Of a DNA stretch of 64,000 nt, positions 8,804 through 41,390 are shown piece after piece. The DNA comes from Alphaproteobacteria bacterium (GTDB taxonomy: Bacteria > Pseudomonadota > Alphaproteobacteria > Rs-D84). The stretch spans positions 24,012-88,011 of the forward strand of contig SUUM01000003.1 of the NCBI GenBank assembly GCA_015062525.1. The letters run 5' to 3'. The notes beneath the pieces were generated by a model that was not told where the DNA came from, did no database searches, and worked only from the letters and a program-made list of their open reading frames with translations. The translations under genes were made by a program, and so were the position numbers. How positions within the stretch are numbered: position 1 is the stretch's first letter; each line of letters opens with the position of its first letter.

Positions 8804-10795
8804 ATGAAGCGTGCAGAATTTTATCTTGAAAGTGCTTACAAGCCCATGGGCGACCAACCAACCGCGATTGCTGAATTGGTTGATGGTGTAAATGCCGGCA
8901 AACAATCCCAAGTGTTGCTGGGGGTGACGGGGTCGGGCAAAACGTTCACAATGGCAAATGTTATTGCGGAACTGGGGCGGCCCGCACTGATTATGGCACC
9001 TAATAAAATTCTGGCGGCGCAATTATACACGGAAATGAAGTCGTTCTTTCCGCGAAATCATGTTGAATATTTTGTGTCGTACTATGATTATTATCAGCCC
9101 GAGGCTTATATGCCAACAACCGATACTTATATCGACAAGGACGCATCAATTAACGAACAACTGGACCGCATGCGCCACAGTGCAACGCGCGCCATGCTAG
9201 AAGAACGTGATGTTGTCGTGGTATCATCTGTGTCGTCAATCTATGGTATGGGGTCGCCCGAACAATATGCCGGTATGCGTGTTGTATTAAGGGCGGGCGA
9301 TATTATGTCTATGCGTGATGTTATGCGTTCTTTGGTTGATATTCAATACAAACGCAACGACACAAATTTTGAACGTGGTACATTTCGCGCGCGTGGGGAT
9401 ACGTTGGATTTATTTCCGTCGCATGCAATGGACCGTGGGTGGAAATTATCGTTCTGGGGGGATGAAATCGAAGAGATTTGGGAATTCGATACCCTGACCG
9501 GGGCAAAATTACAAAAACTGGAACGGATTGCTGTTTATCCGAATACACACTATGCAACGCCAATGCCCAGTGTTTTACAGGCTATTTCCCAAATACGCAC
9601 AGACCTAAGGGAACGGTTGGAATACTTTCACGAAAATATGAAATATATCGAAGAACAGCGTCTGCGGGAACGTGTGAACTTTGACATAGAAATGATGGAA
9701 AGTACCGGCACATGTCGCGGGGTGGAAAATTATTCGCGATATTTATCGGGACGGTTGCCCGGACAGCCACCACCGACTTTGTTCGAGTATTTGCCAAAAG
9801 ATGCAGTATTGTTTATTGACGAAAGTCATGTGACGGTTCCACAAATTGGTGCTATGTCGCGGGGCGACCGTGCGCGCAAGGAAACATTGTCCCAGTATGG
9901 GTTCAGATTACCAGCATGCATTGATAACCGACCATTGACTTTTGATGAGTGGGACAATTTGCGACCACAAACAATCTTTGTTTCCGCCACACCCGCAGAA
10001 TGGGAATTGGCACAAGCGCATGGTGTTGTGTCTGAACAGGTTATAAGACCCACGGGATTATTAGACCCGGTGTGTGAAGTGCGCCCCACAGAACATCAGG
10101 TGGATGATTTGTTGGGACAAGTCAAGCAGACATCCGGGCGTGTATTGGTGACGACATTAACAAAAAAAATGGCGGAACAGTTGACCGATTACCTGAATGA
10201 AAATAACGTTCGGGCGCGATATCTGCACAGCGATATTGAAACACTGGAACGCATTGAATTATTGCGCGAATTGCGTATGGGGAAATTTGATGTTCTGGTT
10301 GGTATTAATTTGCTGCGTGAAGGTTTGGATGTGCCAGAATGTGAATTAGTGGCGATTATGGATGCAGATAAAGAAGGATTCTTGCGTTCAACGCGTTCAC
10401 TTATTCAGACAATTGGGCGTGCGGCACGTAATGCAAATGGGCGCGTTATTTTGTATGCTGATAAAATCACAGATTCTATGCGGGCGGCATTGGATGAAAC
10501 GGCGCGCAGACGTGAAAAACAAATGGCATATAATACGGAACACGGCATTACACCAACGACTGTGTCCAAGGCAATATTTGCCGAGGTTGGCGAAAAACAG
10601 GCAAAGACCGACAAGGGTCGCAGATTTGTGTACGATAAATCGGGTGGTGTGATGGATGCAGAATCGTTGCGCAAAGAGATTGTAAAACTGACTAAAAAAA
10701 TGCATAATGCCGCCCAGGACCTTGAATTTGAATTGGCCGCCGAAATACGCGACCAGATTCATAAATTAGAAGATGATTTGTTATTGGTGGAATAA
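8804..10795 (+). CDS. uvrB: Excinuclease ABC subunit B
   Basis: Walker A GVTGSGKTF, helicase motifs, and a C-terminal UVR domain (…EIRDQIHKLEDDLL). The ORF-track start at 8792 is a GTG. The ATG at 8804 (MKRAEFYLESAYKPMGDQP) matches canonical UvrB N-termini. Confidence 0.95.
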   Translation: MKRAEFYLESAYKPMGDQPTAIAELVDGVNAGKQSQVLLGVTGSGKTFTMANVIAELGRPALIMAPNKILAAQLYTEMKSFFPRNHVEYFVSYYDYYQPEAYMPTTDTYIDKDASINEQLDRMRHSATRAMLEERDVVVVSSVSSIYGMGSPEQYAGMRVVLRAGDIMSMRDVMRSLVDIQYKRNDTNFERGTFRARGDTLDLFPSHAMDRGWKLSFWGDEIEEIWEFDTLTGAKLQKLERIAVYPNTHYATPMPSVLQAISQIRTDLRERLEYFHENMKYIEEQRLRERVNFDIEMMESTGTCRGVENYSRYLSGRLPGQPPPTLFEYLPKDAVLFIDESHVTVPQIGAMSRGDRARKETLSQYGFRLPACIDNRPLTFDEWDNLRPQTIFVSATPAEWELAQAHGVVSEQVIRPTGLLDPVCEVRPTEHQVDDLLGQVKQTSGRVLVTTLTKKMAEQLTDYLNENNVRARYLHSDIETLERIELLRELRMGKFDVLVGINLLREGLDVPECELVAIMDADKEGFLRSTRSLIQTIGRAARNANGRVILYADKITDSMRAALDETARRREKQMAYNTEHGITPTTVSKAIFAEVGEKQAKTDKGRRFVYDKSGGVMDAESLRKEIVKLTKKMHNAAQDLEFELAAEIRDQIHKLEDDLLLVE

Positions 10796-10798
10796 AAT

Positions 10799-11197
10799 AT
10801 GAAAGAATATATATTGGAAAATGTTGAACAGATGCGGGCGTGGGCACGGGATTTTGCAAAAAAACTGACCGCGCCATGTGTGGTTGCGTTGCATGGTGAT
10901 TTAGGTATGGGAAAATCAGAGATTGCACGCACAGTAATTCAAACTTTGCGCGGGGCGGACACCGTTGTCCCCAGCCCGACATTTACCATTGTCCAATCGT
11001 ATGATGGGATTTCTCATTTTGATTTATATCGTATAGAAGACGCGTCCGAATTAACAGAAATTGGTTTAGCACACGCCATGGAAAACGATATTACTTTAAT
11101 TGAATGGCCGGAAATTGCACGGGAATTGTTGCCAGAAAACACAATTCATGTGCATATTATTCAACATGCAGACGGACGCAAAATAACAATTAAATAA
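10799..11197 (+). CDS. tsaE: tRNA threonylcarbamoyladenosine biosynthesis protein TsaE (YjeE ATPase)
   Basis: 132 aa. P-loop region VALHGDLGMGKSEIAR plus SPTFTIV. Begins 4 nt after the uvrB stop. Confidence 0.8.
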   Translation: MKEYILENVEQMRAWARDFAKKLTAPCVVALHGDLGMGKSEIARTVIQTLRGADTVVPSPTFTIVQSYDGISHFDLYRIEDASELTEIGLAHAMENDITLIEWPEIARELLPENTIHVHIIQHADGRKITIK

Positions 11198-11221
11198 TTT
11201 GACACATTAAATTAATTTTTA

Positions 11222-11541
11222 GCGTTATTAGCAACGAATGGCTGGTTTGCATCACAAGGATACCCAACTCACTTGTACCATTATTCAAACCTGGCACCCC
11301 CAACGGGAATCCGCGTGTATAAAAACCCCATGAGTTGCGTTATTAGCAACGAATGGCTGGTTTGCATCACAAGGATACCCAACTCACTTGCACCATTATC
11401 CAAACATGGCACCCCCAACGGGAATCCGCGTGTATAAAAACCCCATGAGTTGCGTTATTAGCAACGAATGGCTGGTTTGCATCACAAGGATACCCAACTC
11501 ACTTGTGCCATTATCCAAACTTGGCACCCCCAACGGGAATC
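11222..11541. repeat. Tandem direct repeat, 115-bp unit x about 2.8 copies. Each unit carries a truncated copy of the tRNA-Glu 3' end (tggcacccccaacgggaatc). The last copy merges into the tRNA-Glu gene.
   Basis: Unit starts at 11222, 11337 and 11452 (period 115), near-identical. The shared 20-mer equals the tRNA acceptor/T-stem 3' strand. Confidence 0.9.
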
Positions 11542-11596
11542 GAACCCGTGTTGCCAGAATGAGAATCTGATGTCCTAACCGCTAGACGATGGGGGC
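11522..11596 (-). tRNA. tRNA-Glu (anticodon CUC)
   Basis: Manual fold gives a 75-nt cloverleaf: GCCCCCA acceptor stem, TCGTCTAGCGGTTAGGAC D-arm characteristic of tRNA-Glu, anticodon loop TTCTCAT, TTCGATT T-loop, and encoded CCA. Confidence 0.8.
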
Positions 11597-11670
11597 AAAT
11601 TCAACCTATGCCACTTATTTTATACTTAAAGTCCGCATTTTTCAAATGAAACTTTTCCAGATGCCAATTT

Positions 11671-12411
11671 TTATTTTTTTGTTTTTTTGCACCCCTGCAA
11701 ATACAGTCTTCCATATTCTGCCATAACATCAACACCCATATATCGATAATCACGCTTTTCCCATGTGCGCGTTGCAACACGTATTGCCGGCAGAAAACTT
11801 TGAAATTTAGTATCTTCCCAATCAATAAAATATGTAATATTACAATTTTCATCCAACATAAAATTCTGCCATATATCGCCCTGGAACCATCCATACAAAT
11901 AACCCGGCTTATCATTTGGATTATCTTTTAAATCGCGTATTTCTTTTGGATCCGCCATACCAACAACATATAACATATTTGCAATTTGCCGTGCGATATG
12001 ACCACGATTTGACGCAACAACCGATGGTGCCACATCGCTTAACAAAGTACCATGTGCGAACTGGTACTTTCGCACGACAATATCCTTGTAATGAATTATT
12101 TTCATTGCCGGAATTTTAATTGGCGAAATTGGCGCCAACGCCTCTAAAATACGTTGTTCACGATACGCAATTTCACGTCCATCTGTGAACAGCGGAAATT
12201 TGAACACCCATTTATCATCCAACACGACGACAAAGTTCCGACATCCACGCCCCACCCGTGTTTTGATTTTTGCCCCTTTTTTCCCGGCATATTTACGAAC
12301 GTATTTGATATAAGACAACGTCTGCGGGTACCGAATCATAACGCGCACCTTGTCCCGCAGTGTTTTTATAGGAATAAACAAACAAACAACATTCGACAGG
12401 AAATGATGCAT
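11671..12411 (-). CDS. Protein-kinase-like fold enzyme, probable LPS-core/Kdo kinase family (WaaP/KdkA-like)
   Basis: 246 aa. Catalytic-loop-like GDIWQNFMLDE and DFG-like IDWED motifs. 4 nt downstream of a GT8 glycosyltransferase gene, so likely one operon. Confidence 0.4.
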   Translation of the reverse strand: MHHFLSNVVCLFIPIKTLRDKVRVMIRYPQTLSYIKYVRKYAGKKGAKIKTRVGRGCRNFVVVLDDKWVFKFPLFTDGREIAYREQRILEALAPISPIKIPAMKIIHYKDIVVRKYQFAHGTLLSDVAPSVVASNRGHIARQIANMLYVVGMADPKEIRDLKDNPNDKPGYLYGWFQGDIWQNFMLDENCNITYFIDWEDTKFQSFLPAIRVATRTWEKRDYRYMGVDVMAEYGRLYLQGCKKTKK

Positions 12412-12415
12412 TATC

Positions 12416-13399
12416 TTACTCCTGAAACAAACCTGTTTTGCGTGCTACATCCCACCAATACTCAGAAAACACCGGTCTAATACCATTAGACCACGGTTTG
12501 ATATAATCCGAATAATGCAACACCACCAAATTATGTTTCAAATCATCTAACTGGGATTCTGAATAAATCTTGAAGATTCGTGATCCATGCGACAATTGAA
12601 AATTATATCGCAACGGCAGAAATGCAATCCGTCCCTTTAACGTATAATTCAGCACATCCTGATCAGGATTATAATAATCATGATCTTTTGAATCCTGAAC
12701 CCACACATCATAGATATTTTCCTGGCGAATTTTCTTCAAATCCATTAACAAGAACCCAGAATTAATATACATATTCGTACGCGTAGGCACAGCCGCAATT
12801 ACATTATCACCCAAATCATATTCATATATATCAATCAAGTCATTAAAGAATATGATATCCAAATCAGCATAAATAATTCTGTCTACATTTGGCACCAATT
12901 TTGGCAACATTAACCGATACCACATTGCAACGGGCCATTTACCACGACTTGATTCATCAAAATCATGATTTCCATAAACAAAATGAATATCAGATTCCGT
13001 CCCATCAAGTACCCCACGAACAACATCCTGCAATTTATCATCAACATCATCATTAATCACACAATAAATATCATAATCGCAACGCCCTGCGGACGCCAAC
13101 AACAAAGACTTAATTGTAACGGCCGCCATTTTACACCCACGTGCATCAAAACAAAACGCCACAGGTATCTTGGTTGCATATTTCTGGCGTGGGATTCTTG
13201 TTTCAGACACAGTGGAAATTAATCCCTTGTATCTAATTTTATCACGATTTAATCTGCGTTTCGCGCGTGTTTTACCAAACAAGCCTGCGACAACTGAACT
13301 AACTCTTTTAACAAAACCATATTTATACATATACAATCCTTTTCTATACACCCGTATCATAGGACATTTTTCTTGTACAAGCAAATAAAATAAAAGCAC
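12416..13399 (-). CDS. Glycosyltransferase family 8 (LPS alpha-1,3-galactosyl/glucosyltransferase, RfaJ/LgtC-like)
   Basis: 327 aa. DxD region IYADLDIIFFNDL and a GT8-like nucleotide-binding N-terminus (…FCFDARGCKMAAVTIKSLL…). Confidence 0.7.
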   Translation of the reverse strand: MLLFYLLVQEKCPMIRVYRKGLYMYKYGFVKRVSSVVAGLFGKTRAKRRLNRDKIRYKGLISTVSETRIPRQKYATKIPVAFCFDARGCKMAAVTIKSLLLASAGRCDYDIYCVINDDVDDKLQDVVRGVLDGTESDIHFVYGNHDFDESSRGKWPVAMWYRLMLPKLVPNVDRIIYADLDIIFFNDLIDIYEYDLGDNVIAAVPTRTNMYINSGFLLMDLKKIRQENIYDVWVQDSKDHDYYNPDQDVLNYTLKGRIAFLPLRYNFQLSHGSRIFKIYSESQLDDLKHNLVVLHYSDYIKPWSNGIRPVFSEYWWDVARKTGLFQE

Positions 13400-18368: not shown

Positions 18369-19202
18369 ATGACAAAACAGATGCCAGGTTTTCAAGATTA
18401 TAAAAACTCTAAAGAAGAAAAAATAAAGACAGAGCTAGATAAAAAAACAAAAGAAAATGAAAGACAAGAATTCCTTAAGATGCAATTAAAAAAATTTGGG
18501 ACTATATTCAAACATACCAGTAAAAAAGATTTGGCTTTTAATGATTTTTTAAGAACGTTTTTTCAGGTTCAAACAATATCTTTTTTAATTGGCAGTATGG
18601 CATTTCTTTTTTCGAGCCGTACACAGTTTGTTAATGATTATGGAAAAACAACGGGTGGTATTATTAATAATCCGTTGAATGAGATTTATGGTGACGATAT
18701 GTCTTATGGTCAAGCCATAAAAAATGCATATCTGCTTGAAGATTGGCGTAACGACAAAGGAGGTGTATTTCAAGGGATATGCGGTTTGTTAAGTATGATA
18801 ATTGCTTTGGTTTTAGCAACCCGTGAAGGTTCTCGTAAAGTAAAATCTAACATGATAAAATCAAGAACTATTTTGTTGCAATTGGATGAATTAAAAAAAT
18901 ATGGTATAGATGTAAAACAGTTAATTGAAAAATTAGGCCCAGGAGCAGAAAAACTTATTTCTGCAATGTCAGAGAAAGATAGGGGGTATTTTGATAATTT
19001 AGTTGCTGGGGGACTGGATAAAGCAAATTATGAAACGTGTGTTGCTATTGTGTCTGGTTATTTAAAATCACATCCTAAAGAATATGAAAAAGTTGTTGAA
19101 ATCATTGATGAAGCAACCTTGCCAGATGAAATCAAAAAGAAATACGGCAAAGGAAAAACGATTTCGTTTGATGCTGCTAGGGAGATATCGTCAGAAAGAT
19201 AA
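18369..19202 (+). CDS. Hypothetical membrane protein (277 aa; K/E-rich N-terminus, two TM segments), candidate secreted effector
   Basis: ORF with AAAAGGA RBS. TM segments ISFLIGSMAFLF and GICGLLSMIIALVLA. Terminator at 19213-19243. AT-rich composition differs from flanking housekeeping genes. Confidence 0.5.
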   Translation: MTKQMPGFQDYKNSKEEKIKTELDKKTKENERQEFLKMQLKKFGTIFKHTSKKDLAFNDFLRTFFQVQTISFLIGSMAFLFSSRTQFVNDYGKTTGGIINNPLNEIYGDDMSYGQAIKNAYLLEDWRNDKGGVFQGICGLLSMIIALVLATREGSRKVKSNMIKSRTILLQLDELKKYGIDVKQLIEKLGPGAEKLISAMSEKDRGYFDNLVAGGLDKANYETCVAIVSGYLKSHPKEYEKVVEIIDEATLPDEIKKKYGKGKTISFDAAREISSER

Positions 19203-20980: not shown

Positions 20981-21078
20981 TTACAAGTCCCCCTTCGTTA
21001 AAACTTCGGGCGACACTACTTCGCCTATGCTTCTCGCCTTGTGTGGCCTGCCACACGAAGCCTCGTAGAGGCGAAGTG

Positions 21079-40996: not shown

Positions 40997-41073
<77 letters not shown>

Positions 41074-41210
41074 GTTAAAACAAAAAACGTACCCCTGTGG
41101 TACGTTTTTTTGTTTTATACCTGTTGCTGGATTTGAACCAACGAAGAAGGTGGTTCAACCGCAGAAAATAGGCGCACGTGTACGCCGGTTTGCGCCCCGC
41201 GCAAAATTTT

Positions 41211-41240
41211 CAAGGTCGCTAAATCCATTCCCCGCAACCA
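41211..41240 (+). repeat. Direct repeat of the tRNA-fMet 3' end (aaggtc…aaatccattccccgcaacca), 167 bp downstream of the tRNA. An att-like remnant.
   Basis: 20/20 identity with the last 20 nt of the tRNA. Additional inverted T-arm fragments at 41130-41140 and 41148-41163. Confidence 0.8.
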
Positions 41241-41390
41241 CGAATTTTCTAAAAATACCGCGTTTGCGGTATTTTTCTTTAGAAAATTCAGTGTCTCGGC
41301 GTAGTGAAACGAAGACGGACCATAACTACAAATTTGCGCACAGCCGGCACCTTGTGCCGAGCGAGCGAAATCCACCCCCACCCCGCGATT

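Follow-up and report, generated by a model that had tools for sequence, protein, structure and literature searches.

The 178-bp repeats at tyrT and tyrV of Escherichia coli, together with the rtT RNA, were reportedly described by Egan and Landy in 1978 and by Rudd in 1999. [quoted passage not shown] They were first seen at tyrT in 1978 and have no established function (PMC8144298). Inspection of strain K-12 confirmed this plan, with one unit of 175 nt behind tyrT and three of 178 nt behind tyrV, all of which close with the last 19 nt of tRNA-Tyr. RrA, RrB and RrF are TLRs that lie downstream of 5S rRNA in the E. coli rrn operons (Stenum et al. 2021, PMC8144298). Their RNAs arise by read-through transcription followed by processing, with the repeat as the proposed guide for RNase E cleavage (PMC8144298). 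In the literature that we searched, no discussion of TLRs outside E. coli and its relatives was found.

Here we describe a tandem array that follows a tRNA-Glu gene in an alphaproteobacterium of the order Rs-D84, an uncultured order with genomes below about 1 Mb (PMC12306168). The window is the whole stretch of 64,000 nucleotides that was analyzed, and L numbers denote the contigs and loci with which it was compared. The array is best described as about two and a half tandem copies of an element belonging to a new, previously undescribed sequence family of tRNA-linked repeats.

A tandem array fused to tRNA-Glu(CTC)

Tandem Repeats Finder reported a single array in the region, at 11222-11541, with a period of 115, 2.8 copies, 97% matches, no indels, and a score of 605. 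The array runs into the gene for tRNA-Glu(CTC), located at 11522-11596 on the minus strand (ARAGORN; Rfam tRNA, 60.1 bits). The original prediction of about 2.8 near-identical 115-bp copies reading into an intact tRNA-Glu was therefore sound, as was its claim that each unit carries the last ~20 nt of the tRNA: the 20-mer GATTCCCGTTGGGGGTGCCA is present in three exact copies (11292-11311, 11407-11426, and 11522-11541, the last within the tRNA). This 20-mer consists of the last four T-loop bases, the 3' strand of the T-stem, the 3' strand of the acceptor, the discriminator, and CCA, the repeated block beginning at the GATT of the T-loop. No further copies with up to three mismatches were found in the 64 kb, for which shuffles expect 0.01. 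The remainder of each unit had been put at ~70 bp of downstream sequence; it actually measures 95 nt, starting at the base right after the CCA of tRNA-Glu, and 70 nt is the length of a truncated third copy (11222-11291). On the tRNA strand the order is promoter-like site, tRNA, 95-nt spacer, GATTCCCGTTGGGGGTGCCA, 95-nt spacer, GATTCCCGTTGGGGGTGCCA, and 70-nt partial spacer, with the following features.

11617..11645, minus strand: promoter-like TTGAAA, 17-nt spacer, TAAAAT; a consensus match at 10 of 12 positions, ~21 nt upstream of the tRNA 5' end
11522..11596, minus strand: intact tRNA-Glu, anticodon CTC (ARAGORN; Rfam), of which 11522-11541 is the first copy of the block
11427..11521, minus strand: spacer of unit 1, 95 nt, with a linker of ~25 nt and the hairpin core; matched by covariance model R1 at 11422-11497 (91.5 bits)
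11449..11465, minus strand: apical stem-loop of unit 1, GTTGC-TAATAAC-GCAAC; the same in every family member found, for the metagenome members by construction, as the apex motif was their search query
11407..11426, minus strand: copy of the last 20 nt of tRNA-Glu closing unit 1, no mismatch
11312..11406, minus strand: spacer of unit 2, 95 nt; R1 match at 11307-11382 (91.5 bits); identical to the single unit of L002
11292..11311, minus strand: copy of the last 20 nt of tRNA-Glu closing unit 2, no mismatch
11222..11291, minus strand: truncated unit 3, 70 nt; R1 only 17 bits at 11195-11267
10799..11197, plus strand: tsaE, a conserved core gene (Pfam TsaE), convergent with the array and its distal limit

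Unit 3 breaks off within the 3' strand of the apical stem, between GTTGCTAATAACGC and TAAAAATT, and the stop codon of tsaE lies 24 nt from the array. An array identical to that of the window is present in a JGI contig (L001), and in an independent ENA assembly (L003) the array is present as far as the contig end. An assembly artifact is therefore unlikely, although short reads do not fix the exact copy number.

Read from the sequence, the acceptor stem of the window tRNA-Glu(CTC) opens with a G1-U72 wobble pair (GCCCCCA / UGGGGGU). This tRNA is a second Glu isoacceptor beside the tRNA-Glu(TTC) of related contigs, and in L105 a similar TTGAAA...TATAAG lies upstream of the tRNA-Glu(CTC) gene.

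One hairpin family downstream of several tRNAs

Relatives of the window's TsaE in the genome collection came from metagenome-assembled genomes of Candidatus Enterousia and allied gut Alphaproteobacteria, with identities of up to 89%. In the loci fetched through TsaE, a script found the tRNA's own last 16 nt again downstream for 24 of 100 tRNAs, at distances of 113 to 245 nt. The spacers that follow tRNA-Gly(TCC) in six species are homologous to the spacer of the window but close with the 3' end of tRNA-Gly. A 19-mer from the hairpin apex, a query that holds no tRNA sequence, matched 22 metagenome loci, and 21 of these are linked to a tRNA: Gly(TCC), Gly(CCC), Leu(TAG), or Glu(CTC). One hairpin family serves at least four tRNA species.

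Each unit consists of a fast-evolving linker of ~25 nt, a hairpin of ~75 nt, and a copy of the tRNA 3' end. Every tRNA-linked family member lies immediately downstream of its tRNA and in the same orientation. Units that can be delimited are 113 to 115 nt long (166 nt in L105), and their last 17 to 20 nt are those of their own upstream tRNA or tRNA fragment. This fragment is perfect in all tRNA-linked copies of the hairpin family with a delimitable unit; in L018, L085, and L087, where the acceptor and T-stem of tRNA-Gly are variant, the fragment mirrors the variants, which is concerted evolution. The junction falls at the T-loop/T-stem boundary in all four tRNA types.

Outside this setting few copies were found. 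Model R1 detected no clear extra copies in the window, in 83 loci (1.26 Mb of related sequence), or in E. coli tyrT. A reading as a REP- or MITE-like dispersed repeat was not supported, given that 21 of the 22 metagenome matches are tRNA-linked and that the window and the 1.26 Mb hold no clear extra copies. The same tRNA linkage differs from the pattern that had been named as the mark of a generic tandem repeat, namely an array shared by relatives without insertion polymorphism and a unit occurring widely away from tRNA genes. One copy, on a metagenome contig of higher G+C content (L088, 12055-12129), lies upstream of tpiA with neither a tRNA nor a tRNA fragment and keeps the same hairpin termini.

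A weak second match (20 bits, E 0.015) was observed ~150 nt from this copy, at 12277-12334 of L088, having only the terminal GCGTATCC...CTCGGATTCC in common. In the 166-nt tRNA-Glu(CTC) unit of L105 (6098-6327), two copies of a 32-nt hairpin repeat (TCCGCTTTCGCTTAYGCTACAGCGAGATTA..) stand between the CCA and the core, and the pair comes again after the fragment.

Structure and conservation of the hairpin

RNAalifold and an explicit pair count gave a hairpin of 20 pairs, 95% paired across the family, with 12 of the 20 changing on both sides. The observed covariation score was reached by none of 500 shuffles, and sliding the partners by 1 to 3 columns left 23 to 42% paired. The basal helix takes in the first bases of the tRNA-derived block, and it is here that a compensatory change can be read directly: a 5' arm GTAACC goes with GGTTTC at the start of that block, and GTATCC with GGATTC. 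The apex UCGUUGCUAAUAACGCAACUC is invariant.

Identity of the core ranges from 0.74 to 1.0, against 0.28 to 0.52 at the four-fold sites of uvrB (0.77 in one closely related pair). The ~25-nt linkers are 0.27 to 0.5 identical between distant genomes and more so only between close relatives; at the same Gly site across species, linkers are saturated and cores are 88 to 100% identical. The hairpin is under purifying selection, conserved far above neutral, and because the core is conserved while the uvrB four-fold sites are saturated, both the core and the perfect tRNA fragment are maintained and not decaying.

With respect to the folding strand, counts of G-U versus A-C pairs (9 versus 5) gave no decision, and the fold z-score was better on the plus strand (-4.6 versus -2.1). 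A closing stem between the linker and the tRNA fragment was also considered. It appeared in single-sequence minimum free energy folds, yet was no better than cross-tRNA combinations or shuffles (duplex energy against 1000 shuffles per sequence, z = -1.0, p about 0.15), and was rejected. A coding role for the small ORFs of the array (31 to 60 aa, both strands) is disfavored, since the 1- to 2-nt indels among family members (113 to 115 nt) and the compensatory stem changes are evidence against coding.

Filled sites, empty sites, and copy number

Comparison with relatives, which had been proposed as a means of finding empty or occupied sites, revealed both, as well as polymorphism between strains. 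The gap between the Gly and Tyr tRNA genes is 5 to 6 nt in L014, L017, L026, and L031, where the site is empty, and ~120 nt in L021, L033, L086, and L102, where it is filled with exactly one unit and a 6- to 7-nt spacer. At the tRNA-Glu locus, copy number differs between strains: L002 has one unit, the same as unit 2 of the window, beyond which lie 16 nt of another unit and then a different short flank, and the window has two units plus a partial one. L004 has one unit plus 29 nt. The distal partial copies in L004, L090, and L105 stop within 2 nt of the linker/hairpin boundary.

We favor, with a probability of roughly 0.6, the interpretation that the array is a transcribed and processed trailer RNA and that such arrays grow and shrink by repeat-mediated exchange. 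Judging from context and by analogy, the units would be transcribed from the tRNA promoter, within the tRNA trailer. The tRNA-identical 3' block could let the tRNA 3'-end processing machinery set the ends of each unit, and processing may then free small RNAs that hold the hairpin, much as rtT and RrB are reported to be released in E. coli. Candidate roles of the hairpin include binding a protein, partial termination, and protecting the precursor. At the DNA level, unequal exchange or replication slippage would be driven at first by the 20-nt direct repeats and later by the 115-nt units; the 20-nt repeats should be sufficient for both precise loss and tandem gain. Such exchange could build arrays, collapse them to one unit (as in L002), or delete them precisely (as at the empty Gly-Tyr sites), and it could also hold the fragment identical to the tRNA. 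The unequal-exchange model leaves the first arrival at different tRNAs with a matching 3' end, and the truncated distal copies, unexplained.

A rival reading treats each unit as a small, non-autonomous piece of mobile DNA, with the hairpin recognized as DNA and RNA expression incidental. A recombinase or transposase encoded in trans would insert it at the boundary of the T-loop and the 3' strand of the T-stem, duplicating the tRNA 3' end, and the array would reflect repeated insertion or later amplification. The precise filled and empty sites agree with this, as do the constancy of the junction across four tRNA types, the stacking of two unrelated families after one tRNA-Gly(CCC) in L091, each with a full fragment, the distal partial copies ending no more than 2 nt from the linker/hairpin boundary (L004, L090, and L105), and the unchanged hairpin termini of the tRNA-less L088 copy; covariation does not separate DNA from RNA. 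No candidate enzyme was found, however, with no integrase family on record within 10 kb, and no matches occurred in viral contigs, phages, or plasmids. Copies are also very few, with none elsewhere in the window and, in 1.26 Mb of related sequence, a single weak match next to the L088 copy. At the same Gly site, moreover, saturated linkers accompany cores that are 88 to 100% identical, so old insertions under selection fit better than recent transposition. We regard a mobile element of this kind as unlikely, though a serious competitor to the processed trailer RNA.

Gene neighborhood of the array

The order AsmA-UvrB-TsaE is kept in 60 of 60 related loci, and the sequence after tsaE is variable. 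Among the TsaE-anchored genome loci, tRNA-Glu(CTC) stands beside tsaE only in the window's species and in L004, the 89% relative. An autotransporter gene directly adjoins tRNA-Glu on its 5' side in L004; in the window's species, genes for a 246-aa APH-like protein and a GT8 glycosyltransferase lie between the tRNA and the autotransporter gene (Pfam: GT8 at 100 bits, the 246-aa protein with only a sub-threshold APH match). The original prediction took this kinase-like gene and GT8 for typical island cargo. Both are on the 5' (promoter) side of the tRNA, vary between strains, and fall outside any interval from the tRNA to a distal repeat, and no repeats flank them in the window. Geometry and synteny thus rule them out as the cargo of a repeat-bounded element.

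An extra APH-like gene was observed in L002, which is of the same species (TsaE 100% identical), at 10743-11468 (Pfam APH, 31 bits). Its product shares 39% identity with the 246-aa protein of the window, and the gene sits between the promoter side of the tRNA and the gene for that protein. With this pair, L002 shows a small expansion by paralogy at a variable locus.

Tyrosine integrases that target tRNA genes generate an identity block from the T-loop to the CCA. The 17- to 20-nt block at this locus is of that kind, and the locus downstream of tsaE varies between strains and species, both of which would suit attL/attR-type scars of serial island integration and excision, the islands having since been lost. 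We strongly disfavor this origin and consider it very improbable. The 95-nt interior is constant in length across species and tRNAs, structured, and selected; the fragments are perfect, where scars would be expected to decay; and the variable genes lie on the side of the tRNA away from the repeats. [quoted passage not shown] The families on record for genes within 10 kb on either side include no integrase or recombinase, as had been noted from the sequence. Likewise, a scan of viral contigs for the hairpin 21-mer found no exact copy, and the spacer gave nothing above chance by blastn in phages, plasmids, or E. coli genomes. From the earlier proposal of att-site duplication or amplification, tandem amplification, the involvement of the tRNA 3' end, and insertion polymorphism stand; the part that invoked integrase scars falls to the lack of an integrase and of cargo, to the structured, selected interior, and to the lack of a match to mobile elements.

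Integron attC sites were rejected as a further candidate upon inspection of the alignments. The base of the hairpin reads GTAWCC...GGWTTC, not RYYYAAC/GTTRRRY, and GTTGGGT occurs once, without an inverse partner. For IntI, too, there is no integrase family on record within 10 kb of the array.

Read-through versus termination

In the Glu units and in most Gly(TCC) units the extended stem leads into a U5 run. In the Glu units GGUUUUUAU comes after the hairpin, and the array, convergent with tsaE, is placed where a terminator would be expected; a duplicated intrinsic terminator, or a generic tandem repeat without specific biology, would account for these observations. We give this reading hardly any weight. 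A terminator scan did not call the element, and the Leu members and one Gly(CCC) unit (L099) lack the U-run, so termination is probably not the conserved role. In relatives the element sits between tRNA genes that are presumably co-transcribed and otherwise 5 to 6 nt apart, and the family is conserved across species and tRNAs. As for the trailer RNA that we favor, the otherwise 5- to 6-nt spacing of the Gly and Tyr tRNA genes argues that the element is read through, the exception being an element-borne promoter; the scan called no promoter-like sites inside the window's array.

Other small elements in tRNA trailers

A second, longer tRNA-linked family, with units of 158 to 245 nt, was observed after tRNA-Tyr in L017 (20023-20184), L031 (19556-19880, in tandem), L041, L051, L086, and L089, and after tRNA-Gly(CCC) in L091. 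In the latter (2300-2671), tRNA-Gly(CCC) is followed by one longer-family unit and then by one hairpin-family unit, each closing with the complete Gly(CCC) 3' end. By eye, the longer family has the motifs GAUGAGAAC, GGUUCGAC, CCGCAGGC, and CCGARGG in common with E. coli RtT. Its Tyr units scored 26 and 19 bits against Rfam RtT (threshold 45), and reciprocal nhmmer matched only the tRNA-like 3' end (E = 0.3). A distant relationship of the longer family to the E. coli TLRs is possible. In L024 (about 19028-19160), the 3' fragment of a longer-family unit after tRNA-Tyr has degenerated (cagccattatcatca versus cagccactcccacca), so fragment decay does happen in the longer family; no decayed fragment was seen in the hairpin family.

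Three further arrangements were observed within the window. The tRNA-Met(CAT) gene at 40997-41073 has its own last 20 nt again 167 nt later, at about 41221-41240 (the arrangement as a whole spanning 40997-41290). Each of these copies has a terminator-like hairpin, with an inverted T-arm-like fragment between, and tRNA-Met units of 160 to 188 nt are also present in L018, L021, L034, L037, and L054. At about 20995-21078, on the minus strand, a short element CACTTCGCC...GTGTGGCARGCCAC... lies directly after the CCA of tRNA-Gln. It was also seen after tRNA-Gly or its fragment in L006, L008, and L089, and each of the four occurrences found abuts a CCA. A third element, ATTTTC...GAAAAT..RTGYC.CGSCG..., which begins immediately behind the CCA of tRNAs or their fragments, is at 41241-41320 of the window and also in L041, L051, L052, L054, L062, and L100. 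It stood directly after CCA in 8 of 8 matches to a pattern requiring CCA and in 5 of 5 to a looser pattern that did not.

The load of such elements differs between tRNAs. In the Enterousia-like loci they follow 14 of 30 Gly(TCC), 14 of 30 Tyr, and 7 of 17 Met genes but none of 29 Thr(GGT) and none of 3 Asp genes, counts that are partly biased by the way in which the loci were gathered. Several small modular elements seem to settle preferentially in the tRNA trailers of this lineage.

Comparison with known systems

Purifying selection on the hairpin, a perfect tRNA fragment, and the tolerance of insertion inside a tRNA operon argue that the hairpin family is more than recombination debris, and in genome annotation such arrays should not be taken as evidence of lost prophages or islands. 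The same architecture has here been built from unrelated sequence in a distant, genome-reduced gut lineage. We suggest, tentatively and as a possibility short of even odds, that TLRs are a general Proteobacterial class of small structured elements that colonize tRNA 3' ends, copy or track their last ~20 nt, and are retained under selection even where the genome is smaller than a megabase. If so, the Enterousia family could provide the first comparative handle on TLR insertion and on what the released RNAs do, and the routes of insertion to compare would be T-loop-targeted recombination by an unrecognized enzyme and an RNA-templated route. The filled and empty sites, the arrays, and the mixed-family stacks are material for testing how tRNA 3' ends are duplicated.

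Among known trailer RNAs, 3'ETS-leuZ likewise comes from the 3' external spacer of a tRNA precursor, an origin that is presumed for the units described here. It differs in being without a copy of the tRNA 3' end and in acting as an sRNA sponge (cited in PMC8144298).

Att duplications of tRNA-targeting integrative elements, among them prophages, genomic islands, and remnants that lack an integrase but keep flanking att sites, resemble the array in their direct repeats starting at the T-loop, in presence/absence polymorphism, and in tandem accretion. A direct repeat that starts at the T-loop is common to TLRs and att sites and does not discriminate between them. The differences lie in the rest of the unit: here there is no integrase or cargo, the 95-nt interior is constant, structured, and selected, and no similar sequence was found in viral, phage, or plasmid collections.

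RrA, RrB, and RrF are alike in being trailer elements that close with 18 bp copied from the 3' end of the preceding stable RNA (PMC8144298). Features of their own are the linkage to 5S rRNA, the position between two terminators, and the binding of Hfq and of CsrA through GGA motifs (PMC8144298).

The likeness is most extensive with the E. coli TLRs at tRNA genes. In both, the elements lie directly downstream of a tRNA on the same strand, a copy of the tRNA 3' end (18 to 20 nt) closes each unit, and a locus carries one to several tandem units, in the window two full units and the 70-nt partial one. The consensus closing stem of E. coli RtT uses the tRNA-derived 3' block, just as the basal helix of the window's family uses the first bases of its block. 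A search of 10500-12500 with Rfam at E <= 10 found the tRNA alone and no match to RtT (RF00391; gathering score, 45 bits; positive control on the E. coli units, 133 to 137 bits). As there is no RtT match and no blastn match to E. coli, the array is assigned to the TLR class by architecture and not to the RtT family by homology. It differs from RtT in its unit of 115 versus 178 nt and in its single long hairpin, and from the E. coli TLRs in its host, an alphaproteobacterium with a reduced genome, and in the spread of one family over at least four tRNA species.
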